DNA of 64,000 nt from Pseudomonadota bacterium (GTDB lineage Bacteria > Pseudomonadota > Alphaproteobacteria > Sphingomonadales > Sphingomonadaceae): the NCBI GenBank assembly GCA_041182185.1, contig JBEGOD010000055.1, forward strand, positions 76,490 through 140,489, given 5' to 3'. The notes beneath the pieces are model-generated. The model made no database searches and was not told the origin of the DNA. It was given only the letters and a program-made list of their open reading frames with translations. This document shows, piece after piece, positions 27,675 through 41,934 of this stretch (positions are counted from its first letter, which is position 1; each line of letters begins with the position of its first letter). The translations under genes and the position numbers were made by a program.

Positions 27675-28370
27675 TCAGACCACCCGGTCAGCAATCAGTT
27701 TCAAGCCCCCAACGTCAGTAAGTTCTATCTTCCCGTAGCCAAGTCTGATCAGCCCGGCTGCCTCGAAGTTTGATAGATGCTGGTTGATGGTCTTGCGCGT
27801 CAGGCCCATCATTTCGCCCAGCAGTTCCTGGCTGACCTTGATGACATGCCGATCAGCAGATTGGACATGATCGTGGAAGGCCAGCAACCGGGCCGCTATT
27901 CTCTCGCGGGGGCGCAGCGAGATGACCTCCGCAGCCATCCGAACTGCACTGCGCATGTGCGCATAGGCAAAGCCCGCCATCGCTTGCCAGATATGGGGAG
28001 CCTGCGAACCAATCCGGTCAAGGGCCTCCTCCGAAAGTTCGAGGAAGGTGCTGGGTTCGACACATACGGCGGTGACCAGGCGTGGCCCCCCGCTATAGCG
28101 CGTGGCGTGACCGATCACCGAACCGGGCCCGACCAGGCCAATCAGCACCTCGCGATCGCCCGGCGCGGCACAATAGGAATGGAGCAGGCCCGAAATGACC
28201 ACCGACAGGCCCGGTCGATCATCGCCCTCGGCCTGGGCCCATTCACCGACGTTGAGCCGGACCAGGCGGCCTTCGCTCACCAGTCTGTGAACCAGGTCGT
28301 CGGGATAGCCCTGCAGCCAGGCCGAATGCCGCAGGGCTTCGAATACCAATGACTGATCGTCTGCTTGCAT
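27675..28370 (-). CDS. Crp/Fnr family transcriptional regulator
   Basis: cNMP-like domain (SGLL...GPGSVIG...PRLVTA), RERIAARL, VSQELLGEMMGLTRKTINQHL HTH, YGKI. Confidence 0.9.
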   Translation of the reverse strand: MQADDQSLVFEALRHSAWLQGYPDDLVHRLVSEGRLVRLNVGEWAQAEGDDRPGLSVVISGLLHSYCAAPGDREVLIGLVGPGSVIGHATRYSGGPRLVTAVCVEPSTFLELSEEALDRIGSQAPHIWQAMAGFAYAHMRSAVRMAAEVISLRPRERIAARLLAFHDHVQSADRHVIKVSQELLGEMMGLTRKTINQHLSNFEAAGLIRLGYGKIELTDVGGLKLIADRVV

Positions 28371-28378
28371 GAGCCGAT

Positions 28379-28394
28379 TGTAACGACGGTGACA
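28379..28394. promoter_or_regulatory. CRP-type box TGTAA-N6-TGACA
   Basis: 8/10 match to TGTGA-N6-TCACA, in the 77-bp divergent gap next to a Crp-family gene. Confidence 0.6.
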
Positions 28395-28447
28395 GTTTCG
28401 GGCAATTGATCCTGTTAGCCACGATCCTCACGAGGAGAGGACGGGCC

Positions 28448-30280
28448 ATGGATGAGAACACCGCGCGCAAGGAGATCGTCCGGATCGGCGGCGCAACTGC
28501 CTCCTTCTCGGACACCGCACTCTCAGTGCCGCAACTGCTTGAAGCGGGCGATCTCGACTATCTGGTTTTCGACTATCTGGCCGAAGGATCGATGGGGATC
28601 TTCGGCAGAATGCAGGCCGCAGATCCTGCGGCTGGGTTCGGCACCGATTTCCTGACGGTTCATGTCGGCCCCCATCTGCACGCAATCGCCGCGCAGGGGG
28701 TGAAGGTCGTCGCCAACGCCGGTGGGGTCAATCCATCCGGACTTGCTGCGGCACTAGAAGCCTTGATCGCCGAACAGGGGCTTTCGCTCACCGTTGCTTA
28801 TGTCGAGGGGGACGACTTGCGCGATCGCGTCGCGGAACTGCGCGCAGCCAGGTACTGCGACATGTTCGACGGCACTCCTTTCCCCGACCGCGTCATCAGC
28901 GCCAATGCCTATCTTGGCGCTTTCCCGATTGCCGCAGCGCTGGCGGCTGGTGCCGACATTGTCGTCACGGGGCGCGTTGTCGATAGCGCCGTGGTGCTGG
29001 GCCCGCTGATCCACGAATTCCAGTGGACGCCCGACGATCACGATCTGCTGGCCGCCGGCACGCTTGCTGGCCATCTGCTAGAATGCGGGGCGCAGGTGAC
29101 GGGCGGGACCTTCACCGATTGGCGCGCGGTGCCGGATTGGGCCAATATCGGCTACCCCATCGGCGAATGCCATGCCGACGGCACGCTGGTGATTACCAAG
29201 CCACAAGGGACCGGCGGTCTCGTCTCGATTGGCACGGTTGCCGAACAGCTGCTGTACGAAGTCGACGATCCCTCGGACTATATCGTCGCCGACGTCCGCT
29301 GCGATTTCAGCGAGGTCCGGCTGGAACAGCTTGCTCCGGATCGGGTCCGCGTCAGCGGGGCAAAGGGACGCACGCCAACCGACAGCTACAAGGCCTGCAT
29401 CACCTTCGACAAGGGCTGGCGGGCGATTGCCTATCAACCGATCATTGGCGAAGACGCGCAGGAAAAGGCGGAGCGGCAAGCCCAGGCGCTGTTCGCCCGG
29501 TCCAGCGTTCTGCTCCGCGCCCGCAACCTGCCCGATTTTACCCTCACCGAGACAGTGATGATCGGTGCCGAGCAGAGCTTTGGTGCGCACGCGCGGACCG
29601 GAGGCACACGTGAACTGATTTCCAAACTGGTGGTCGATCACCCCACCCAAGAAGGCGCCGCCATCTTTGCGCGCGAGCAATGGGCCGGCATTTCCGGCAT
29701 GGCGGTCGGCACTTCGATCAATCTTGCCACCCATGTCATGCCGCTGACCGGCACGTTCCTGTTCCTGATCGACAAGCTGGCCACTCGCGCGACCATGACG
29801 ATCGGTGGCACGACCCACGAGATACCGATCGCAGCCGGCGAGCCTTTGGTTGCCGTCACCGCCGCTGCTCGGCGAGCAGCGGTCCCGCTGGTGCTGCCGG
29901 ACCCGGTCGAGGTCGACCTCGTCCGTTTGGCCTGGGCGCGCAGCGGTGACAAAGGGCAACTATTCAACGTGGCTGTCATTGCCCGCCGGCCCGAGTGGCT
30001 GGCCTTTCTCAGGGCGGCATTGACGGCTGAGGCGGTGAGCGAATGGTATCGGCATCTTGGGCCGAACGGACAGCAACCGGCGGTTCGCGCCCATGATGTT
30101 CCCGGCGTTCATGCGATCAACTTCGTGATCGATGGCGCGTTGCCGGGCGGGATCAACGCCAGCACCCGGCTCGATCCTGCGGCAAAGGGGATGGCCCAGA
30201 TGCTGCTGCGCTTCCCGGTGCCGGTCCCGGCCGCCCTGGCCGCTTCCCTCAATTGCCAAGCATCGAACTCAGGAGACTGA
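28448..30280 (+). CDS. AtuA-like protein (DUF1446, acyclic terpene utilisation family)
   Basis: VRIGGA, YLVFDYLAE, NAGGVNP, SANAYLGAFPI, TGRVVDSA, GHLLECG, EQLLYE, ARSGDKG, DPAAKG. Confidence 0.9.
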   Translation: MDENTARKEIVRIGGATASFSDTALSVPQLLEAGDLDYLVFDYLAEGSMGIFGRMQAADPAAGFGTDFLTVHVGPHLHAIAAQGVKVVANAGGVNPSGLAAALEALIAEQGLSLTVAYVEGDDLRDRVAELRAARYCDMFDGTPFPDRVISANAYLGAFPIAAALAAGADIVVTGRVVDSAVVLGPLIHEFQWTPDDHDLLAAGTLAGHLLECGAQVTGGTFTDWRAVPDWANIGYPIGECHADGTLVITKPQGTGGLVSIGTVAEQLLYEVDDPSDYIVADVRCDFSEVRLEQLAPDRVRVSGAKGRTPTDSYKACITFDKGWRAIAYQPIIGEDAQEKAERQAQALFARSSVLLRARNLPDFTLTETVMIGAEQSFGAHARTGGTRELISKLVVDHPTQEGAAIFAREQWAGISGMAVGTSINLATHVMPLTGTFLFLIDKLATRATMTIGGTTHEIPIAAGEPLVAVTAAARRAAVPLVLPDPVEVDLVRLAWARSGDKGQLFNVAVIARRPEWLAFLRAALTAEAVSEWYRHLGPNGQQPAVRAHDVPGVHAINFVIDGALPGGINASTRLDPAAKGMAQMLLRFPVPVPAALAASLNCQASNSGD

Positions 30281-30281
30281 C

Positions 30282-31088
30282 ATGGCCGACTATTCCTATC
30301 TGATGAATGGCATCAAATCTGTCGCAACCGAGAGCAGCGTCCTGGTCAGCTCGTCGAAGTACCTCAACGATGCGCGGGTCCGGGACTGGGTGGCGACGCA
30401 TCTGCTGCGCCGCAACGGTCCGGATGTGCCCACCCCGTCCGACTCGATCCAGCTCGTACAGATCCTGCGCGAAGTTCAGGACATCGATCACATCAATGCC
30501 CTGCTGGCCGCCGAGCGGGAAATCAATCCCGCTCTCGACGCCTGGTTCCGCGAGGGCTTCTCGTCAACCTTTACGCTCGATGATCTGAAGCGCTACGCGC
30601 CGGATACCGTAGGCGGCATCTTCTACGCCCAGCTCACCGACAATGCCCTCGACGTAAACATCGTACCGCCATTCGTGCCGAGGAACGATTTCGAGTACTT
30701 TCAATTGCGCGCCGGCCAGACCCACGACCTGGAGCACATTCTTGGCGGCGGGGGCTTCGATTTTATCGGCGAACTGGTCCCTTACTACATGCGCCTGACC
30801 AACCTGTTCGTCCATCTGTCGCCAGAACTGGCGGGTGAGCTTTCCGCCTTCTCGATCCTGGGCTCGACCCGGATCATTACCCGCGCCGTGCTGCATTATC
30901 CGCAGACCTGGCTGACCACGCTGGATGCCCTTGAGCGAGGCTCTCGCGTCGGGCGGCAATCCGCGCCGATCTTCATGATGCGCTTCGAGGACGTGTTCGA
31001 CCTGACCCCCGCAGCAGCGCGCGAGGCACTGGGAATAAAGGGCGTCGAGCTGGCAGATACCGCCACCGCCTCGGCCCAGTGGAACTGA
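30282..31088 (+). CDS. Coq4-like metal-binding protein
   Basis: HDLEH-x11-E (HDxxH-x11-E motif), DDLKRYAPDTVG, AREALGI; ATG 30282 after AGGAG. Confidence 0.7.
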   Translation: MADYSYLMNGIKSVATESSVLVSSSKYLNDARVRDWVATHLLRRNGPDVPTPSDSIQLVQILREVQDIDHINALLAAEREINPALDAWFREGFSSTFTLDDLKRYAPDTVGGIFYAQLTDNALDVNIVPPFVPRNDFEYFQLRAGQTHDLEHILGGGGFDFIGELVPYYMRLTNLFVHLSPELAGELSAFSILGSTRIITRAVLHYPQTWLTTLDALERGSRVGRQSAPIFMMRFEDVFDLTPAAAREALGIKGVELADTATASAQWN

Positions 31089-31104
31089 TCCGGAGGACCA
31101 TGCC

Positions 31105-31905
31105 ATGAACAAGCCCCTCCGCAGCAATCCGATCCTCGAAAAGCTGGCGCCGCACCCCGGCCGCTATCCGCTGTTGCCCGATCTCACCCCGCAACAGGAA
31201 CTCGCCCTGCTGTGCCGCATGCTCCATCGCGAAGGCTATGACGATCACATCGCCGGGCACATCACCCTGGCCCAGGACGACGGCAGCTTCCTGGTCAATC
31301 CCTGGGAACTGGCCTGGGACGAACTGACTGCAGCCGACATCATCCGCGTCGATGGCGCAGGCCAGGTGATCGAGGGCGAATGGAACGTGACGCCGGCGAT
31401 CGGCCTGCATCTGGCCGTGCACCGCAACCGTCATGACCTGAAGGTCGCCATCCACAACCATCCACGCTGGGGTTCCGTCTGGTCGGCGGCCGGCCGAATC
31501 CCGCCTGTCTACGACCAGACTTCGGGCCAGGTCGAGGGCGATCCGGTACTCTACGACGAGTATGCCGGAACCGTCGACGGCGCTTCCCAGGCCGAGGCGG
31601 CCGCAGCGGCGCTGGGCGGGGCAAAATGGGCGATCCTCAGGAATCACGGCGTTTTCCTCGTCGCCAGGGATATACGCCAGGCCCATCTGCGCGCGATCAC
31701 ACTCGAGCACCGCTGCCGGCTCGCCTGGCAGGTCGAGGCGCTCGGCGGCGGCCAGCCTGTCAACGACCCTGAGACGCTGCGGGTCGCGCAGATGTCGGAC
31801 GACCTCGGCTTCCCTTTCCTATGGGAGGCCATGGCCCGCCGCGAAATCCGGCACGATCCGGCGGTGCTTGGCGGTGATGCGTTTGCGGAAGGACGCGGGC
31901 GATGA
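31105..31905 (+). CDS. Class II aldolase/adducin family protein
   Basis: AGHIT, FLVNP, LHLAVH, IHNH, LRNHG zinc-ligand pattern. Confidence 0.88.
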   Translation: MNKPLRSNPILEKLAPHPGRYPLLPDLTPQQELALLCRMLHREGYDDHIAGHITLAQDDGSFLVNPWELAWDELTAADIIRVDGAGQVIEGEWNVTPAIGLHLAVHRNRHDLKVAIHNHPRWGSVWSAAGRIPPVYDQTSGQVEGDPVLYDEYAGTVDGASQAEAAAAALGGAKWAILRNHGVFLVARDIRQAHLRAITLEHRCRLAWQVEALGGGQPVNDPETLRVAQMSDDLGFPFLWEAMARREIRHDPAVLGGDAFAEGRGR

Positions 31906-33383
31906 GCCGGGCCAGACCGCTCAAGGCGATTGTCGTCGGCGCAGGCATGGCTGGCCTGCTGGCCGCGATCCGTCTGCGTGAGCGCGGCGATGACGTGATT
32001 GTGCTCGAAAAGGGCGACGAGATTGGCGGAACCTGGCGGGATAACCGCTACCTGGGCCTGACCTGCGATGTCCCGGCCCACTCCTATACCTATTCCTTTG
32101 CACCGAACCCCGACTGGAGCCGCTATTTCGCCAGCGGGAGCGAGATCCTCGACTATTTTCGCGGCGTCACCGATCGCTTTGGCCTGCGCGAGCTGATCCG
32201 GTTCGGGCAGGATGTAGTCTCCACCCGCTGGATCGACGGCGGCTGGACAGCAGAAACGCGCAGCGGTGAAACATACCGGGGCGATGTGCTGATCGCGGCA
32301 ACCGGCGTGCTCCACTATCCCCGTTTCCCGGAGATTGCTGGGCTGGAAAGCTTCGCCGGGGACTGCTTCCATTCGGCCCAATGGCCGGATGGCATCGACC
32401 TGGCGGGCAAGCGCGTCGCGGTGATCGGCAACGGCTCGACCGGGGTCCAGCTCGTCTCCGCGCTCGCGGACGTGGCCGGCCATGTCCAGCATTTCCAGCG
32501 CTCGCCGCAATGGATCATGCCGGTTCAGGATTTCGCCTGGTCGCCCGAGGACAGGGAGCGCTTTCGCGGCGACCCGGCAGCGATCGACGCGATCCGTTAT
32601 GACCCGGAATACATCGCCAATGTCAGGCGCTTCAACGATGCCATCATCGATCCCGGCTCCGACGCGATGACCCAGATCGAGACCTTTGTCAGGGATCATC
32701 TGGAAACGGCAGTCAGCGATCCCGAACTGCGCGAAAAGCTGCGCCCCGACTATCGCGCCGCCTGCAAGCGCCTGATCTACTCTCCTTCGTATTACGAGAA
32801 AGTCCAAAGCCCGAACGTGACAGTGGTGCGAGAAGGCATCGATCATGTCGAGCCTGAAGGCGTGCGAACGCGCGACGGCATGCTCCATCAGAGCGATGTC
32901 CTGATCCTTGCCACCGGCTACCATGCCGATCGCTTCGTCCGCCCGATTCAGCCGGTCGGCCGCGCCGGGCAACGCCTGGACCAGGTGTGGGAGCGCCGCG
33001 CCACAGCCTATCTGGCGATCAGCGTGCCCGAGTTTCCCAACCTCTTCATGCTCAACGGACCCACTGGCCCGGTCGGCAACTTCTCGCTGATCGACATTGC
33101 CGAAGCGCAGTGGGGCTATATCGACCAGCTGCTCGACCTCATCAGGAACGGCTCCGCCAGCGAGATCTCCGCCAGCCACGCCGCAATGGACGATTACGAG
33201 CAGCGCCGTATCGCCGCTGCCCGCACCACCGTTTTCGCCAGCGGCTGTTCGAGCTGGTATCTCGATAAGGAAGGCGTGCCGCAGTGCTGGCCCTGGAGCT
33301 TTGACCGGTTCTTCGAGGAAATGAGCAGGCCAGATTTCGGAGCATTCGAGCTGCGAAGTACCAGTGGGGAGGATCAGTCATGA
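31902..33383 (+). CDS. Type I Baeyer-Villiger-type flavin monooxygenase
   Basis: GAGMAG, GGTWRDNRY, FAGDCFHSAQWP (FxGxxxHxxxWP fingerprint), GNGSTG, ATGY, GCSSWY. Confidence 0.88.
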   Translation: MSRARPLKAIVVGAGMAGLLAAIRLRERGDDVIVLEKGDEIGGTWRDNRYLGLTCDVPAHSYTYSFAPNPDWSRYFASGSEILDYFRGVTDRFGLRELIRFGQDVVSTRWIDGGWTAETRSGETYRGDVLIAATGVLHYPRFPEIAGLESFAGDCFHSAQWPDGIDLAGKRVAVIGNGSTGVQLVSALADVAGHVQHFQRSPQWIMPVQDFAWSPEDRERFRGDPAAIDAIRYDPEYIANVRRFNDAIIDPGSDAMTQIETFVRDHLETAVSDPELREKLRPDYRAACKRLIYSPSYYEKVQSPNVTVVREGIDHVEPEGVRTRDGMLHQSDVLILATGYHADRFVRPIQPVGRAGQRLDQVWERRATAYLAISVPEFPNLFMLNGPTGPVGNFSLIDIAEAQWGYIDQLLDLIRNGSASEISASHAAMDDYEQRRIAAARTTVFASGCSSWYLDKEGVPQCWPWSFDRFFEEMSRPDFGAFELRSTSGEDQS

Positions 33384-34186
33384 CCGGCAGCCAGAAGCTC
33401 GCCGTAGTGACCGGCGCGGCGAACGGGATCGGTGCGGGCCTCTCGCGGGAAGCGGCAAGAGCGGGCTACCGTGTCCTGCTGGCTGATTGCAACGAGCCTG
33501 CCCTGGCCCGGACAGCAGCGGCGATCCCTGGTGCCGAATATCGCGTCACCGATGTGACCGATCCCATCCAGATGGCCGCGCTAGCAGACCATGCCGAAGC
33601 CTTGGGCGGCGCGGATCTGCTGTTCAACAATGCCGGGGTAATGACCACAGGTTTTAGCTGGGAGATCCCCGCCGCCGATTGGGACCGCGCAATCGCGATC
33701 AATATCGGCGGTGTCCTGAACGGGGCCCGCGCTTTCATCCCGCGCATGATCGCGCGGGGCAAGCCTGCGCAAATCGTCAACACCGCCTCGGTCGGCGGGT
33801 TCCTGCCCAGCCCGCTGATGGCGCCCTACTCGGCCACCAAGTTTGCGATCGTCGCGATCACCGAGGCCATGCAATGCGAACTGGAACTGTTGGGCGCCCC
33901 GATTTCGATCAGCCTCCTGGCCCCCGGACCGGTCCTGTCCGAGATCTTCGCAAGCCCCTTCGGAGGAGACGCTCACCCGGCGACCGAGCGGTTTGTCGAG
34001 ACAATGAAGGAAATGACCGCGCTGCACGGCATGGGGGCCGATGAATTCGCCGCCCTGGTCTTTCAGGGCATCGGCCGGGGTGAATACTGGATCATTCCAC
34101 AGCCCGAAGCACTGGATCCGTTCCTGCAGGCCCGGCACGAAATGATCCGGGAGCGTCGTCGGCCGACCGGCTCGATGACAGGCTAG
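33380..34186 (+). CDS. Short-chain dehydrogenase/reductase
   Basis: TGAANGIG, NNAG, NTAS, YSATK. Confidence 0.9.
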   Translation: MTGSQKLAVVTGAANGIGAGLSREAARAGYRVLLADCNEPALARTAAAIPGAEYRVTDVTDPIQMAALADHAEALGGADLLFNNAGVMTTGFSWEIPAADWDRAIAINIGGVLNGARAFIPRMIARGKPAQIVNTASVGGFLPSPLMAPYSATKFAIVAITEAMQCELELLGAPISISLLAPGPVLSEIFASPFGGDAHPATERFVETMKEMTALHGMGADEFAALVFQGIGRGEYWIIPQPEALDPFLQARHEMIRERRRPTGSMTG

Positions 34187-34201
34187 AGCGCGGAGTGCCC
34201 C

Positions 34202-35113
34202 ATGATTGACTCTGAAATCCAAGCCCTGCTGACAGCACTGGCCGAGAGTGGCTTTGCCCTGCCAGAGCCCCTTGATCCCGTTGCGCTGCGCGCCATGCTC
34301 GATGTTCCAATCCCTGCACCGCCAGTCGACATTGCCCGCACCGACCTGGTGATTGCCGGGCAGGATCGTGCGCTACCGGCGCGGCTTTATCACGCCGCGC
34401 CAGGTCAGGCTTTGCCTGTGGTGCTTTTCTTCCATGGCGGCGGCTGGGTCCATGGCACCCTCGATACGCATGACCGGTTAGCGGCGGCCCTTGCCGTACA
34501 AGCGCAATGCGCCGTCCTGTCGGTCGGCTATCGACTGGCTCCGGAAAATCCATTCCCGGCAGCATGGGAAGATGCGCTGCTGTCCTTGAGGTGGTTGAAG
34601 GAAAATCACGCCCGGCTGGGTGTTGACGCAAGCTATATCGCTTTGGCCGGGGATAGTGCGGGCGGCAATCTGGCAGCTGCGGCAGCTCAGGCCGTGGCCG
34701 GCGATGCTTCGGTCGTTCACCAGTTGCTGCTCTATCCGGCCCTGGATGGCTCGTGCTCAACCCGCTCTTTCGGCACACACTATCCGGGCTTTCTCAGTCC
34801 GGCGCAAATGAACTGGTATTGGGAGCAGTATGCCAAGGAACGGCGCTTCGATCCCAGGGTCTCTCCAGCGGCAGGGCGCATCCTGCCAGCCCTGGCACCC
34901 GCTACCATTATCCTTGCAGCGAACGACCCGCTCCATGACGAGGGCGCAGCATATGCAGCGCAGCTTCGTGCCGCCGGGATCAAGGTGGACCTCCATGACT
35001 ATGACGGTGCAGTGCATGGTTTCATGAGCTTGATTGGCCTGGCAGCCCTGGCCGACGCGGCTGTCTCAGTGGCCAGCACCGCTCTGCATCGGGCATTCTC
35101 AGGGCATCGTTAA
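34202..35113 (+). CDS. HSL-family esterase (alpha/beta hydrolase_3)
   Basis: HGGGW, YRLAPE, GDSAGG, DPLHDEG, HGF. Confidence 0.92.
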   Translation: MIDSEIQALLTALAESGFALPEPLDPVALRAMLDVPIPAPPVDIARTDLVIAGQDRALPARLYHAAPGQALPVVLFFHGGGWVHGTLDTHDRLAAALAVQAQCAVLSVGYRLAPENPFPAAWEDALLSLRWLKENHARLGVDASYIALAGDSAGGNLAAAAAQAVAGDASVVHQLLLYPALDGSCSTRSFGTHYPGFLSPAQMNWYWEQYAKERRFDPRVSPAAGRILPALAPATIILAANDPLHDEGAAYAAQLRAAGIKVDLHDYDGAVHGFMSLIGLAALADAAVSVASTALHRAFSGHR

Positions 35114-35254
35114 AGCATCTCCTGCGGATTAACGTCGCGTCAGGATTGCCGACCACCGCTACCCCCAGGACTAGTGCCGCCGATCAGACGCTCTGAAGGG
35201 AGCGCCACATTGCGGCGGCGGAGACCGTGGGAATTCTCTGCTCGAGCAGACTTT

Positions 35255-35311
35255 GTGGCGGGGGGGCAGTCGACCGGCGTCGAACCTTCTCTGAGGCGTA
35301 AGCTATTGAAT
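35255..35311. other. Putative attachment-site relic (tRNA 3'-end-like) plus IHF-like site
   Basis: Minus strand reads GGTTCGA...CCCCCCCGCCA. TAAGCTATTGAAT at 35299-35311 is one mismatch from the IHF consensus. Coincides with a visible drop in GC. Confidence 0.4.
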
Positions 35312-35394
35312 TATAATAATTGTACTGGGTTCGGAACCTAGATACGGCATTAATCCGACTAAAGATATGTCCAGTTAAGAACCCAAAAGTCCCG

Positions 35395-35967
35395 CTATTC
35401 CGCCAGTATAGCCGAGACCAGCCGTCTCAAATCCATTTCAAGCTCCTCTCTGCTTTTAGCCTGTTCACTGATCCCGATTGATGCGCAGAAAATAAGCCTG
35501 GCATCATCGCGAGGCGTACTCGACCCGGCCGCTTGCAACGCTCGAAAGATAGCGTCCTCGATTGCCCTATCCATTGCGTTGAAAAGTTGCCCAAATTCAT
35601 GTCTGCGCGTGTCGAGCAATTCCAATCTATGAGGGCTTCCGATGGCCGCATCAAATGCTCGCCCATGTTTTGCCATAAGCGCATTCGATATGCGGTCAGC
35701 CAGGCTGCCTTTTTCCTTAAGCGCAGCGATAACTCCTAGTTGCATGTCGCTTGCCAAGCGCGATGCCACAGCGGAAAAAACGGTCATTTTATCAGGGAAG
35801 TATGCGTAAAGTGTCGCCTTAGAGATGGAACTAGCCGCAGCAATCGCTTCCATTGTAGCTGATCTCAGGCCAACCTTGGCAAACAAGCTCTCGGCAGCGT
35901 CGAGAATACGATCGCGCTTGATCGTCTTCGCACGAGTTATCGGTTTTGGGTCATCTTCGCGGGTCAT
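35395..35967 (-). CDS. TetR/AcrR family regulator
   Basis: RILDAAESLFAKVGLRSATMEAIA..SKATLYAYFPDK. Confidence 0.92.
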   Translation of the reverse strand: MTREDDPKPITRAKTIKRDRILDAAESLFAKVGLRSATMEAIAAASSISKATLYAYFPDKMTVFSAVASRLASDMQLGVIAALKEKGSLADRISNALMAKHGRAFDAAIGSPHRLELLDTRRHEFGQLFNAMDRAIEDAIFRALQAAGSSTPRDDARLIFCASIGISEQAKSREELEMDLRRLVSAILAE

Positions 35968-36020
35968 CTCCACTTGATAGTTTCCCGCCTTGACATCTGC
36001 AACCGATCAAACAAACGTAC

Positions 36021-36037
36021 TAAACGATAGTCGTTTA
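36021..36037. promoter_or_regulatory. Probable TetR operator TAAACGA-TAG-TCGTTTA
   Basis: Perfect 7-3-7 palindrome in the divergent tetR/reductase gap, upstream of a TATGAT -10-like hexamer. Confidence 0.65.
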
Positions 36038-36063
36038 AAACGTATGATTCTGAGGACGCCGCT

Positions 36064-37089
36064 ATGCAAGAACGGGTACTGGTCACGGGAGCCAATGGCT
36101 TTATTGCCTCGCACATCACCAAGCTGCTGCTGGAGCAGGGATTCGCCGTTCGGGGGACGGTTCGTAATCCGCTGAAGGCAGATACGGTTGGCTTTCTTAA
36201 AGCGTTGCCAGATTCCGGCAATTTAGAGCTTGTTTCGGCGGACTTGAACGATGAAGGCGCATTCTCAAATTATACTGCAGATGTGGATTATGTAATCCAC
36301 ACTGCGAGCCCATTTGTTATCGACGTTGAGGACGTTGAGCGCGACCTAGTCCAACCTGCGGTGCGCGGCACCGTCTCGGCATTGGAGGCTGCAGCGAAGT
36401 CTAGCCGCGTTAAGCGCGTTGTTCTCACTTCTTCCATGGCCGCGATCACCGATGCGCCAGATGGCAGGGTGCTGACCGAAGCGGATTGGAATGAAAAATC
36501 TTCTGTAACCCGCAACCCTTACTACTATTCCAAGACGCAAGCTGAACGTGCCGCCTGGACTTTTACGAAGGAAAATAGCACCGGCTTTGATCTAGTCGTC
36601 ATAAACCCCTTCATGGTTGCCGGACCTTCGCTAAGCACCGGTGTCAGTACGTCCAATCAGCTCTTCATTGACATCGCCAATGGTCAATATCCTGCCTTGA
36701 TGGCACTCAACTGGGGCTTTGTTGACGTTCGAGAGGTAGCCGAGGCCCATGTTCGCGCAATGAAGGCGTCGAACGCCAAAGGGCGCTACATCTGCGCTGC
36801 GGGCAATATGGATATGCACCAAATTACCAATCTAATGAAGTCGGTCGGCGTGCAGGGTAAGCTTCCATCATTCGACATGAGCGGACGCATTGGGACCACA
36901 ACGATGAAGCTTCTCTCAAATTTCCAGCCGAGTGGCATAGGAAGCTACCTCAGAACACATCTTGGAAGCGTTCCGCGGTTTGATAATAGCAAAATCCAGC
37001 GCGATCTCGGCATAGGGTTTCGTGACGTCGAAGAGACAATTTATGATACCGTGCACGACCTCATCGAATGGGGGCATTTGTCTAATTGA
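36064..37089 (+). CDS. Extended SDR, aldehyde reductase / dihydroflavonol-reductase-like
   Basis: TGANGFIA, VRGTVR, HTASP, TSSMAA, YYYSK, FVDVREVA. Confidence 0.9.
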   Translation: MQERVLVTGANGFIASHITKLLLEQGFAVRGTVRNPLKADTVGFLKALPDSGNLELVSADLNDEGAFSNYTADVDYVIHTASPFVIDVEDVERDLVQPAVRGTVSALEAAAKSSRVKRVVLTSSMAAITDAPDGRVLTEADWNEKSSVTRNPYYYSKTQAERAAWTFTKENSTGFDLVVINPFMVAGPSLSTGVSTSNQLFIDIANGQYPALMALNWGFVDVREVAEAHVRAMKASNAKGRYICAAGNMDMHQITNLMKSVGVQGKLPSFDMSGRIGTTTMKLLSNFQPSGIGSYLRTHLGSVPRFDNSKIQRDLGIGFRDVEETIYDTVHDLIEWGHLSN

Positions 37090-37351
37090 ATGTCCAGCTG
37101 CGACCTTTGGTCCGATTTGCTGGGTGCTTTCTCGCCATGCAACCTACGCCTTGGCATCGCCAATGAAACTTGCGATTTTGGGATCATCTATAGAGGCTTC
37201 ATGGCTAAATGCGCGACAATTGACGCGGGACGCCGACTAGGAGTTCCTCACCCGTCGATTTCGAACGGCAGCATATTATGAAAGCGGAAGGAATCCAGAA
37301 CACTAGGGGCTACTCGGATTATATGCCCCACCTCTTTAGGTGTTGCTCTTT

Positions 37352-37777
37352 CTAACTGCTAATATGGCTCTTCAGTTCGATCCCGTTGCCCTCTGGGTCT
37401 GTTAAATAAATGGATGGGGCGAACCCCCGCGCACCAAACCGCATTTTGGGAGGAGCGACGTTGATACCAAAAGCCACCAAATGGGTTCTCAGTGCCTCGA
37501 AGTCGAACGGGCTAATGCATAGGCACAGGTGATCAACATTTTTGCCGGAGCGGTCATCTTGCGATGTCGCCCTCTCTCCGATGTCGTGATTGATGCTCAC
37601 AATGTCGATCATCGTATCACCTGCTCTGAGATGCGTTAGGCCAATCTCGGGCCGATCCCAAACGAGCTCGCAGCCGATAACATTGATATAGAACGCTATT
37701 AGATTAGGTCTGCTCAATGACCGGATAACAACATGGTCAATTGTCGTAAGACTGAATGGCGGCATATACCTTTTCAT
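37352..37777 (-). CDS. VOC (glyoxalase) family protein
   Basis: IDHVVI, NVDHLCL, RFGARG, SIYLTDPEGNGIELK. Confidence 0.85.
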   Translation of the reverse strand: MKRYMPPFSLTTIDHVVIRSLSRPNLIAFYINVIGCELVWDRPEIGLTHLRAGDTMIDIVSINHDIGERATSQDDRSGKNVDHLCLCISPFDFEALRTHLVAFGINVAPPKMRFGARGFAPSIYLTDPEGNGIELKSHISS

Positions 37778-37879
37778 TACCCTGCTTAATTAACAAAATT
37801 CGCGTCACTCATATGGGGGTGTTATAATGCAAAAGCTCTGACCAAAGCCGGGCATCATAATTCGTATTGGTCTGCCATG

Positions 37880-38803
37880 TTATGCCATCAGTCCAAGCGG
37901 GTTTTCGATCAGGTCCTTGAACGCCTGCATCAGTTGCGCGCCGTCGGCGCCATCGATGGCGCGGTGGTCGAAGCTGCCGGTCGCGCTCATCACGCTGGCG
38001 ACGGAAAGCGCACCGTCGACCACATTGGGCCGCAGCTCGCCCGCACCGACAGCCATGATCATCGCTTGGGGCAGATTGATGACGGCGTCGAACTGCTTGA
38101 TCCCGAACATACCGAGGTTGGAGAGGCTGGCTGTGCCACCTTGGTATTCGTGCGGCATCAACTTGCCGTCGCGGGCCTTGTCGGCCAGCGCCTTCATCTC
38201 GTTGCTGATCTGCGCCACGCCCTTGGCCGCGGCATCGACGATGATCGGGGTGATCAGACCTGAGGGAGCCGCCACCGCAACTGAGATGTCTGCGCGGCTG
38301 TACTTGCGCAGTTCATCGCCAGCAAAGCTGACGTTGCACCTGGGCACCCGGATCAGCGCCTTGGCCAGTGCCTTGATCAACAGATCGTTGACCGACACCT
38401 TCACGCCGTCGGCTTCGAGCGCCTTGTTCAGTTCGCCGCGCAGCTTGAGCAGGGCATCAAGCCGCACGTCAACGGTCAGGTAAATGTGCGGAATGGCCTG
38501 CTTAGCCTCGGTCAGGCGGCGGGCGATCGTTTTTCGGACATTGTTCAATTTTTCAGCTTCGTAAGGAATGCCGAAATCCGAAACGGCGGACAGAGCCGCT
38601 TGCGACGGAGTAGCGGACGAAGCAGGGAGCGGTGCCGCGCCGGGCTGTGCAGCCTCGACATCGGCCTTCACTATCCGGCCATTCGGACCGCTGCCCCTGA
38701 CTGCCTTAAGGTCCACGCCCTTCTGATTGGCGATCCGCTTGGCGAGCGGTGAGGCGATCACGCGATTAGGCTGAATCATCCCAGTCTGGTCAGATTTTGG
38801 CAT
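37880..38803 (-). CDS. pdhC: Pyruvate dehydrogenase E2 (dihydrolipoamide acetyltransferase) lacking the N-terminal lipoyl domain
   Basis: Begins at the subunit-binding domain ([17 protein letters not shown]); catalytic DHRAIDG intact; overlaps the pdhB stop, so there is no room for a lipoyl domain. Confidence 0.85.
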
Positions 38804-41214: not shown

Positions 41215-41934
41215 TCAGTATTTAATTGTGCCGCCATCGACGACAAGTGTTTGCCCCGTCATGAATGCAGCTTCTTCTCCAGCGAGGAAGAGGATTGCCC
41301 CCAAGACGTCTTTGGGCGTTGCTACCCTTGGGATTGATTGTGAAGCAATAGTTTGCGCTACGACTTCAGGAGCATTTGCCTCAACAACGGCAGTCCCTTC
41401 GGTTCGCGTAAAATTCGGAGCTACGCAGTTTACCGTCAATCCAAATTCACCAAACTCAGAGGAGAGTGATCGAGACATCCCAATAATTGCTCCCTTACTA
41501 GCAATATAGTGAGCCATATTGGGCAACCCCATAAAAAATGTATTCGAAACAATATTTATTATTCGACCCCATTTTTTCTTTTTCATATTTGGAATAGAAG
41601 CTTGGCAGGTGTTAAAAACCGAACTTACATTTGTCGTAATAACCCTATCCCATTCCTCTTTCGTGATCTTTTCGAACGGCTGCATGGGATACACTCCTGC
41701 ATTATTTACAAGAATGTCGATTGGCCCAACTGCCGCTTCGGTATCGCTAAACAATGCCATCACGCTATTTTTGTCACTTACGTCACAATGCGCACGGATC
41801 ATTTCTGCTGATGTGTTGAAGCCGGCGTAAGAGACATCCGCCCCGACAACCGAGAAGCCGCGGGCAGAAAAGGCTTCTGCAATTGCTGCCCCGATACCCT
41901 GAGCACTGCCTGTAACAAGAACCACTTTAGACAT
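41215..41934 (-). CDS. Short-chain dehydrogenase/reductase
   Basis: TGSAQGIG, NNAG, YIASK; AT-rich codon usage. Confidence 0.9.
   Translation of the reverse strand: MSKVVLVTGSAQGIGAAIAEAFSARGFSVVGADVSYAGFNTSAEMIRAHCDVSDKNSVMALFSDTEAAVGPIDILVNNAGVYPMQPFEKITKEEWDRVITTNVSSVFNTCQASIPNMKKKKWGRIINIVSNTFFMGLPNMAHYIASKGAIIGMSRSLSSEFGEFGLTVNCVAPNFTRTEGTAVVEANAPEVVAQTIASQSIPRVATPKDVLGAILFLAGEEAAFMTGQTLVVDGGTIKY

Follow-up and report, generated by a model that had tools for sequence, protein, structure and literature searches.

What would bring an AtuA-family protein, a Coq4-like protein and the enzymes of a Baeyer-Villiger cleavage together in one operon, and on which substrate would they act? The question is raised by positions 27675-35113 of a 64,000-nucleotide stretch of DNA (hereafter the window, meaning the stretch at its full length) from a metagenome-assembled genome (MAG) of a freshwater member of the Sphingomonadaceae (assembly GCA_041182185.1, contig JBEGOD010000055.1, positions 76,490 to 140,489). 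A preliminary description, made from the letters of the sequence, had seen six closely coupled genes and a divergent Crp-family gene at this place, and had proposed an uncharacterised pathway for a branched or isoprenoid lipid. Seven genes were confirmed over the interval, namely the divergent Crp/Fnr-family gene (crp) and six tightly packed genes encoding an AtuA-family protein (atuA), a Coq4-like protein (coq4), a class II aldolase/adducin-family metalloenzyme (ald), a type I Baeyer-Villiger monooxygenase (BVMO), a classical short-chain dehydrogenase/reductase (SDR) and a hormone-sensitive-lipase-family (HSL) carboxylesterase; the Pfam assignments of all seven agree with that description. 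The successive gaps in the six-gene run are 1, 16, -4, -4 and 15 nt, so that coq4 begins 1 nt past the atuA stop and stop/start codon overlaps join ald to the BVMO gene and the BVMO gene to the SDR gene. Catalytic motifs are complete in the Coq4-like protein, the aldolase-like protein, the BVMO, the SDR and the esterase, and a fall in G+C content from ~63% to 51-54% directly past 35.1 kb marks the 3' edge of the unit. On balance, it is somewhat more probable than its contrary that the operon is a dedicated, activator-controlled catabolic unit of the sphingomonad gene set for the degradation of steroids (bile salts or sterols). The enzyme families are all known and the logic of a BVMO followed by an esterase is textbook; new, as far as the literature searchable here goes, are the AtuA/Coq4-like pair, the one-site Crp-family regulon and the tie to steroids.

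The tie to steroids is apparent in the neighbourhood. Upstream in the window are encoded two acyl-CoA synthetases (one of them CasG-like), an amidohydrolase, an amidase and a TonB-dependent receptor, together with Nov2c228-like and KshA-like Rieske proteins, a 7-alpha-hydroxysteroid dehydrogenase-like SDR, HsaC and a BaiCD-like flavoenzyme. Homologues of the bile-salt side-chain cluster of Sphingobium sp. Chol11 (SclA, Scd4AB, the Rieske protein Nov2c228 and amidases) lie 10-27 kb upstream of the operon, and homologues of genes of that cluster also adjoin AtuA/Coq4 paralogues in other genomes, whereas the AtuA, Coq4-like, aldolase-like, BVMO and esterase genes fall outside the Chol11 cluster as described. 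No mention of these five was found in the two 2021 preprints (10.1101/2021.05.19.444901; 10.1101/2021.06.24.449856) or in the main text of a later study (PMC12882949), and a full-text literature search for AtuA with steroids returned nothing relevant. Paralogous AtuA/Coq4 pairs (~50-55% identity) adjoin KstD-like flavoproteins, pairs of acyl-CoA dehydrogenases and a block of amidase, Rieske protein, amidohydrolase and CasG-like CoA ligase. Plasmid pNL2 of Novosphingobium aromaticivorans, from a strain reported in the 2021 Chol11 work to degrade bile salts, carries an 80-kb steroid-type cluster in which AtuA is accompanied by two Coq4 genes; some 45 kb beyond these, another Coq4 gene, the third, adjoins an SDR-BVMO pair. 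In Sphingomonas and Rhizorhabdus, and also in MAGs of the Steroidobacteraceae, atuA-coq4 is followed by genes for an acyl-CoA synthetase, two acyl-CoA dehydrogenases, a ChsH2-type hydratase and an Ltp2-type thiolase, which is the canonical steroid side-chain set, and the Steroidobacteraceae loci have an aldehyde dehydrogenase gene in addition.

The same association is seen genome-wide. In 301 evenly sampled Sphingomonadaceae genomes, with a Nov2c228-like Rieske protein of at least 52% identity as the steroid marker, Coq4-like genes were identified in 32 genomes, the marker in 29 and both in 27, where 3.1 would be expected; five genomes had a Coq4-like gene without the marker and two had the marker without a Coq4-like gene. 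The marker was present in all 14 genomes with an orthologue of the Coq4-like gene and in all 10 with the ald gene (eight of these at 77% identity or more), and AtuA and Coq4-like genes were found together in 24 genomes. In 12 of the 27 genomes a Coq4-like gene and the marker were no more than 25 kb apart, many of the assemblies being fragmented. Genera sampled several times were concordant, and the genus of the window had two genomes with both genes and three with neither. We regard the association as strong, but not as proving a single pathway. The preliminary assignment to a branched or isoprenoid lipid holds loosely, as steroids with a branched side chain would fit it, while the setting points to steroids and away from acyclic terpenoids and prenylated aromatics.

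For AtuA (28448-30280, plus strand, 610 aa), the start is better placed at the ATG at 28448, behind GAGGAGAGGA, than at the start of the longest open reading frame (ORF). The protein scores 432.1 bits for PF07287 and 98.0 bits for the ferredoxin-like domain PF23544, both above the gathering scores, and is encoded by the single AtuA gene of the genome; NCBIfam has no model for it or for the Coq4-like protein. A single-sequence search of PDB sequences with AtuA returned nothing, and a match to the citramalate lyase subunit CmlA emerged only by profile and fold search. The profile of AtuA relatives finds 9erq/9evf (E 1.6e-9), for which the depositors give the name 'AtuA family protein / citramalate lyase subunit A (cmlA)'. 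An AlphaFold (AF2) model of AtuA, built with 55 diverse relatives as input (pLDDT 95.3), has one strong Foldseek match, to chain A of 9evf (E 6e-20; 'Citramalate lyase - ADP - pyruvate complex'), and its C-terminal ferredoxin-like domain matches chain B of the same entry (TM 0.73); VIA-align of the model with 9evf_A gave Z 32.0 and a root-mean-square deviation of 3.4 Å over 419 residues. By these models AtuA is a clear structural homologue of citramalate lyase, predicted to join, in one chain, a lyase body like CmlA and a ferredoxin-like C-terminal domain like CmlB, and thereby belongs to a lyase family of which the first member was solved in 2025. The likeness extends over the fold of the whole large subunit, the small subunit being represented by the C-terminal domain of AtuA, and includes a shared GR..D motif. 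In contrast to the two subunits of CmlAB (DUF1446 and DUF4387), AtuA is here one fused 610-aa chain with 16% identity to CmlA, and it has a Coq4-like partner and a steroid-type catabolic setting instead of a glutamate-fermentation/mesaconase setting (PMC4682846). Glutamate mutase, methylaspartase and mesaconase genes were found neither in the window nor in 78 related loci.

CmlAB splits citramalate directly into pyruvate and acetate (bioRxiv 10.64898/2026.01.16.699985), and the same group had remarked in 2015 on an unexplained DUF1446 gene in a glutamate-fermentation cluster of E. coli O157:H7 (PMC4682846). By analogy, the chemistry of the AtuA family, left blank in the preliminary description, can be considered partly known; it would consist in splitting a tertiary beta-hydroxy-acid, with no CoA thioester involved, to give acetate and a carbonyl compound. 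The AtuA family takes its name from the use of acyclic terpenes in Pseudomonas, where the atu pathway leaves to AtuA the step that frees acetate from a tertiary hydroxy-acid intermediate, and chemistry of the CmlAB type would fit this unassigned step. An AtuA-family protein is what the operon shares with the Pseudomonas atuABCDEFGH cluster, in contrast to which it lacks the geranyl-CoA carboxylase subunits, the AtuE hydratase, the AtuD dehydrogenase and the AtuH ligase, and has a Crp-type regulator instead of the TetR-type AtuR. The absence of the other atu genes, noted in the preliminary description, was borne out by Pfam and NCBIfam searches of the interval 23.7-37.1 kb, in which no atu-type carboxylase, hydratase or CoA ligase came up. 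We know of no atu cluster with a Coq4-like partner, a BVMO or an esterase.

The Coq4-like protein (30282-31088, plus strand, 268 aa), whose start is better placed at the ATG at 30282 behind CAGGAGA than at the longest-ORF start, scores 22.0 bits for PF05019, just below the cut-off of 22.9. The motif HDxxH-x11-E is exact at residues 148-164 and invariant in two alignments (A1 and A3), a profile matches PDB entry 3msq (E 3e-9), and the structural model superposes on 6e12 and 3msq with TM scores of 0.73-0.74, 6e12 having been solved with Mg and oleic acid. From its model, the protein is a true Coq4-fold protein, predicted to bind metal and lipid. It shares the metal motif and the helical fold with eukaryotic COQ4, which has been implicated in C1 (oxidative) decarboxylation (PMC10680789, PMC7615680), and with the cyanobacterial Alr8543/Npun Coq4-like proteins; unlike COQ4, it has no ubiquinone genes nearby, and its family is paired with AtuA or with an amidohydrolase. 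Because the family is patchy (32 of the 301 genomes), multi-copy (at least eight matches per genome in some) and found in catabolic contexts, and not near-universal and single-copy, a role in quinone biosynthesis is not supported. The expansion occurs in some of the sphingomonads surveyed (G169, G075, G242, G104 and G014 are examples), the copies often being grouped within 50-150 kb, while ~90% of the Sphingomonadaceae genomes have no Coq4-like gene. A paralogue branch (46-58% identity) is paired at seven or more loci (L062-L076, for example L076:4767-7303, and L081:19286-22013) with an Amidohydro_3/D-aminoacylase-like protein of ~580 aa and not with AtuA, which looks like a second recurrent module of a Coq4-like protein and its partner in steroid-type clusters.

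The protein of the class II aldolase/adducin family (31105-31905, plus strand, 266 aa; 137 bits in Pfam) has a metal site of three histidines, H117-x-H119 and H181, the spacing of which we take to be FucA-like. Its nearest solved chains are 4xxf, NovR (9ryg), 3ocr and TqaM (E 7e-19 to 5e-16 for those of the NovR/TqaM type). The protein may therefore be placed, by distant similarity, in a NovR/TqaM-like branch, and might, like NovR, CloR and TqaM, decarboxylate alpha-keto or alpha-hydroxy acids with oxygen.

For the second half of the operon, the BVMO (31902-33383, plus strand, 493 aa) has the fingerprint FxGxxxHxxxWP as FAGDCFHSAQWP at residue 151 and two Rossmann motifs, GAGMAG at 13 and GNGSTG at 176. 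It is presumably of the short EthA-like type; its PDB matches are the BVMOs CHMO, PAMO and STMO (E 1e-60 to 1e-72), with CHMO the best at 3e-72, and it is 57.6% identical to SARO_RS19410 on pNL2. An identification of this enzyme with a progesterone BVMO by way of pNL2 was considered and set aside, as the published pdc homologue could not be picked out among the pNL2 genes; SARO_RS19430, for want of a Pfam match, cannot be recognised as a luciferase-like monooxygenase (LLM), and an annotated LLM is located at 217 kb. The SDR (33380-34186, plus strand, 268 aa; adh_short 146 bits) has the motifs TGAANGIG (TGxxxGxG) and YSATK (YxxxK), with homologues of 51-57% identity in related operons (37% in L053). 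The esterase (34202-35113, plus strand, 303 aa; Abhydrolase_3 218 bits) has HGG at 78, GDSAG at 150, DPLHD at 242 and HGF at 272, matches the NCBIfam model LipP1 with 278 bits, under the cut-off, and has homologues of 61-71% identity in related operons. In the steroid-type cluster of pNL2, an HSL-family esterase (L084:17749-18672) is identical (100%, AMRFinder) to the chloramphenicol hydrolase estDL136; the esterase of the window is more distant from it (231 bits for the CHL_hydrolase model, cut-off 500).

To see how far the gene set recurs, 78 loci were collected from species-representative genomes with a profile of the Coq4-like protein, and the seven window proteins were mapped onto them and the ORFs clustered; ORF picking was crude and included some antisense ORFs in this high-GC DNA. 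A Coq4-like protein of at least 70% identity was taken as orthologous (59 loci). At these, atuA lies directly upstream of coq4 in 53 cases and ald directly downstream in 21, and the full set in canonical order is found in nine. All six families occur together at 14 other loci, in several genera and in three gene orders. The order of the window, atuA-coq4-ald-BVMO-SDR-esterase, is shared with two Novosphingobium MAGs; atuA-coq4-ald-SDR-BVMO-esterase is found in Parasphingorhabdus, Erythrobacter, Hellea and others; and in a third arrangement, atuA-ald-SDR-BVMO-esterase, a Coq4 paralogue comes directly after the esterase in L065, L068 and L077, is separated from the esterase by another SDR and a TonB-dependent receptor in L074, and in L078 is placed upstream, together with an AtuA paralogue in divergent orientation. 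The unit is thus modular, with a core of regulator, AtuA and Coq4-like protein, an aldolase-like gene that is confined to loci of the Sphingomonadales type, and an extension (BVMO-SDR-esterase) that recurs but is optional. The six-gene set of the preliminary description does recur, then, not as one invariant set but as a variable extension of a crp/atuA/coq4 core. Since the genes co-occur elsewhere, the earlier view of an uncharacterised, regulator-coupled catabolic unit could be retained.

In the second and third arrangements, the BVMO resembles PAMO and steroid monooxygenase (E 1e-163 and 1e-152) and has 30% identity with that of the window; in most of the related operons the BVMO is close to steroid monooxygenase, whereas the window has one of a different subtype. 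The occupation of the same operon slot by unrelated BVMO types in different lineages argues that the Baeyer-Villiger step itself is kept in the pathway, in line with the earlier claim that it belongs to the unit. At L037-L058 (Steroidobacteraceae and unclassified proteobacterial MAGs), crp-atuA-coq4 is preceded by a prolyl oligopeptidase gene and a HutD-like gene, and is followed by genes for an SDR, a PurU-like formyltransferase-domain protein, a NosD-like beta-helix protein, a TonB-dependent receptor and an aldehyde dehydrogenase; the PurU-like, formyl-handling gene might be a hint of formate release. Sphingobium 'Tom' isolates from tomato roots carry the crp-atuA-coq4 core at 73-75% identity on ~1-Mb replicons, with no adjacent ald, BVMO or esterase gene; on the plasmid of one of them, Sphingobium sp. 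TomTYG65 (L082, 852307-854947), two TonB-dependent receptors lie upstream. The genus Sphingobium is reported to catabolise steroidal glycoalkaloids (PMC10653915).

The unit has a regulator of its own. This protein (27675-28370, minus strand, 231 aa) has the Pfam domains cNMP_binding and HTH_Crp_2, with NCBIfam matches all far under their cut-offs, and divergent orthologues of 46-94% identity are present at 42 of the 59 orthologous loci. It has two cysteines only (C67 and C103), without the FNR-type N-terminal cysteine cluster for [4Fe-4S], and is therefore not an oxygen-sensing FNR. In the spacer between crp and atuA, an imperfect palindrome at 28379-28394, TGTAACGACGGTGACA (TGTAAC-N4-GTGACA, with the GTAAC half towards crp), makes up the putative operator; the box had been written TGTAA-N6-TGACA in the preliminary description, and it proved real, though TGTAAC-N4-GTKACA is the better notation. 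With at most one mismatch allowed, TGTAACNNNNGTKACA has three matches in the window against 0.12 expected by chance, two of them being this site on both strands, and the 2.8-Mb assembly has a single copy of the 14-nt core, GTAACNNNNGTKAC. In the crp/atuA spacers of other genomes, taken from every related locus with both genes, the position of the box is unchanged throughout (47 of 47 intergenic regions), with the consensus (T/A)GTAAC-N4-GTGACA; this conservation at a fixed place, together with the genome-unique core, argues against a chance match. Across the ~80 loci of ~20 kb each, the strict pattern is found about once per locus, in the crp/atuA spacer. At the crp-less type B loci no box lies beside atuA, and two of them (L030 and L032) hold one well away from it. 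In a Hellea MAG (L053:8038-8109), the 138-bp spacer has two perfect GTAAC-N4-GTTAC palindromes 58 bp apart instead of one. A one-mismatch copy in the window, TGTGACGTAAGTGACA at 41772-41787, is located within an ORF (41215-41934, minus strand) at the edge of a luciferase-like monooxygenase island and was dismissed as probably due to chance.

Alignment of the spacers on the box shows a conserved GCAA at columns 24-27 and a conserved TA dinucleotide at columns 38-39, at a fixed distance from it. If this TA opens the -10 hexamer (putatively TAGCCA, 28416-28421, plus strand), the centre of the box would lie near -41.5, which is the geometry of a class II CRP/FNR activator, and from this we infer activation rather than repression. 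A sigma-70 consensus scan gave no plus-strand promoter at the start of the operon, as would be expected of an activator-dependent promoter, and a terminator scan gave nothing above chance; a minus-strand near-match of the promoter scan, TTGCCC-17-TACAAT, overlaps the box and was not relied on. The earlier phrase 'self-contained Crp-controlled operon' seems, from these sequence features, a fair description. A one-site Crp-family regulon could become a biosensor once the ligand is known.

How the unit would act on a steroid can be outlined as follows, the order and each single reaction being our proposal. The Crp/Fnr-family protein with its effector would bind the sole operator of the genome and switch on one promoter for the six translationally coupled genes. 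AtuA would most probably, by analogy with CmlAB, act on a beta-hydroxy-carboxylate of the steroid side chain and, with no CoA thioester involved, cleave it to a short acid and a carbonyl compound, and the Coq4-like protein would prepare the substrate of AtuA by hydration or decarboxylation, or present a hydrophobic substrate to the lyase. That this constant neighbour makes the hydroxy-acid for AtuA, as mesaconase does for CmlAB, is a guess by analogy. The NovR/TqaM-like aldolase-family enzyme may contribute a metal-dependent decarboxylation or an aldol-type step; the BVMO would insert oxygen beside the carbonyl of a ketone or aldehyde to form an ester, the esterase would split this ester, and the SDR would oxidise the released alcohol. 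In this order the AtuA, Coq4-like and aldolase-like proteins would act ahead of the BVMO, as the preliminary description had supposed. The last part resembles the methyl-ketone operons mekAB of Pseudomonas veronii and acmAB of Gordonia, in which an alcohol is turned into a ketone, then into an ester and then into an acid plus an alcohol, and which also have an adjacent esterase gene and, to our knowledge, lack lyase, Coq4-like and aldolase-like genes and a steroid context. By analogy, it also matches the progesterone route of the Rhodococcus steroid monooxygenase and the Caenibius tardaugens pdc cluster, in which a BVMO converts a 20-ketosteroid into a 17-acetate ester that is hydrolysed to the 17-ol and then gives the 17-ketone (PMC12239570). 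Unlike the pdc cluster (BVMO-TetR-LuxR-LLM), the operon has no TetR, LuxR or LLM gene, and the pdc cluster has no AtuA, Coq4, aldolase, SDR or esterase gene (PMC12239570).

A more specific version of this proposal addresses a gap in the known pathway. The papers on Chol11 and C. tardaugens report that the lyase for bile-salt side-chain cleavage in sphingomonads is still missing, and in neither strain was a set of hydratase, aldolase or thiolase found that explains the step, or one that is induced (10.1101/2021.05.19.444901; 10.1101/2021.06.24.449856; PMC12882949), and the Chol11 work reported that a second beta-oxidation-like cycle is missing in Sphingobium and Novosphingobium genomes. It is conceivable, although we hold it only tentatively and think it rather doubtful, that AtuA and the Coq4-like protein are the missing CoA-independent C-C lyase of steroid side-chain degradation in Sphingomonadaceae, which lack induced Sal/Ltp2-type aldolases, and that the carbonyl product (a C22 aldehyde or a 20-ketone) is removed carbon by carbon by Baeyer-Villiger oxidation, ester hydrolysis and alcohol oxidation to a 17-ketosteroid. 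The operon would then let sphingomonads shorten the side chain without the second cycle; if true, steroid side chains would be removed by a new route, and a catabolic role would be known for the first time for a protein of the Coq4 family. The AtuA-type lyase, its Coq4-like partner and the Baeyer-Villiger branch are in any case concrete candidates for side-chain cleavage, AtuA and the bacterial Coq4-like proteins, long annotated without function, gain a defined genomic role, and the main interest of the locus lies in turning an open question on steroid side-chain cleavage into specific experiments. The simpler idea of AtuA as a plain replacement of Ltp2/Sal2 lost weight, since Sphingomonas and Steroidobacteraceae loci carry both.

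Other readings of the same operon have to be weighed against a unit for steroid degradation. Two co-transcribed modules may stand side by side with separate substrates, crp-atuA-coq4-ald serving a small or unrelated hydroxy-acid (citramalate-like, of the alkylmalate type) and BVMO-SDR-esterase serving ketones (20-keto steroids of the progesterone type, or methyl ketones). This would explain why the core stands without the BVMO, SDR and esterase genes at most loci, why BVMO type and gene order vary, and why the SDR-BVMO pair of pNL2 lies beside a lone Coq4 gene with no AtuA; the substrate of CmlAB is a small acid, and in C. tardaugens progesterone cleavage by a BVMO is the task of the separate pdc cluster (PMC12239570). 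Such a division is nevertheless unlikely, as it would be difficult, if no functional link existed, to account for the recurrence of all six families at 14 loci, in several genera, in three orders and with BVMOs of either type, the stop/start overlaps couple ald to the BVMO gene and the BVMO gene to the SDR gene, and there is a single operator with no internal promoter signal. A pathway for acyclic terpenoids or methyl-branched/isoprenoid lipids (citronellol-like alcohols, isoprenoid methyl ketones), unrelated to steroids, is suggested by the family name of AtuA, by the suitability of SDR, BVMO and esterase for subterminal oxidation of branched chains and by the prenyl or fatty ligands of Coq4 relatives (6e12). 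We think it decidedly improbable, given the lack of the geranyl-CoA carboxylase, AtuE-type hydratase and atu CoA ligase nearby, the lone AtuA of the genome, the ties of the family to steroid clusters both by neighbourhood and by genome-wide co-occurrence, and a survey of the 78 related loci in which no terpene genes turned up. Degradation of a prenylated or alkylated aromatic acid or quinone, with (oxidative) decarboxylations like those of ubiquinone and novobiocin chemistry assigned to the Coq4-like and NovR-like proteins, is very improbable indeed; in its favour, COQ4 is implicated in C1 oxidative decarboxylation and the aldolase-like protein has NovR and TqaM among its closest solved relatives, but both relationships are distant, the conserved unit has no aromatic ring-cleavage or prenyl-handling genes, and the Coq4-like family tracks steroid markers.

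The assignment to steroid degradation has difficulties of its own, the most serious being that the core often occurs by itself, that it coexists with canonical genes in other lineages and that its response in C. tardaugens is weak. At many loci there is nothing but crp-atuA-coq4, in some cases followed by ald, and the core can thus do without the BVMO, SDR and esterase; and where it lies beside canonical ChsE/ChsH/Ltp2-like genes, it is not simply their substitute. With a fused chain only 16% identical to CmlA, the reaction type is transferable to AtuA and the substrate class is not. As the genomes are related and plasmids are shared, the Fisher p-values of the co-occurrence are overstated, and the association could reflect shared megaplasmids or islands rather than one pathway. 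The orthologue in the Sphingobium Tom strains has no obvious steroid genes within 12 kb, and the source genome of the window is a MAG with a completeness of 85.9%. Expression data from C. tardaugens, which is not named among 120 listed homologues, point both ways. On cholate relative to testosterone, the class II aldolase/adducin gene EGO55_06905, which lies 91 bp from a Crp/Fnr gene, was among the dozen most induced (log2 fold change 3.1; PMC12882949, supplement 2), and EGO55_06900/06905 may be orthologues of crp and ald; the DUF1446/Coq4 pair responds weakly to cholate, with a log2 fold change of 0.96 (1.9-fold) for the DUF1446 gene and a 1.2-fold change for its Coq4 neighbour (PMC12882949).

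Two further features of the MAG were noted. The closest relatives of Ltp2 and ChsH2 that it encodes have only 33-38% identity, in line with the missing second cycle. On another contig (C132 of G000, 109-155 kb) there is a cluster of three thiolase-like genes, each with a small OB-fold/DUF35-like ORF behind it; they have this level of identity to the Ltp2- and ChsH2-type queries and may be part of its steroid ring or side-chain degradation. The low-GC stretch past the 3' edge of the operon (35114-38000) has a TetR-family ORF on the minus strand (35395-35973) and a gene for an HpnA-like NAD-dependent epimerase (36064-37089), and it gives the impression of a distinct insertion, acquired recently, by which the operon is bounded.

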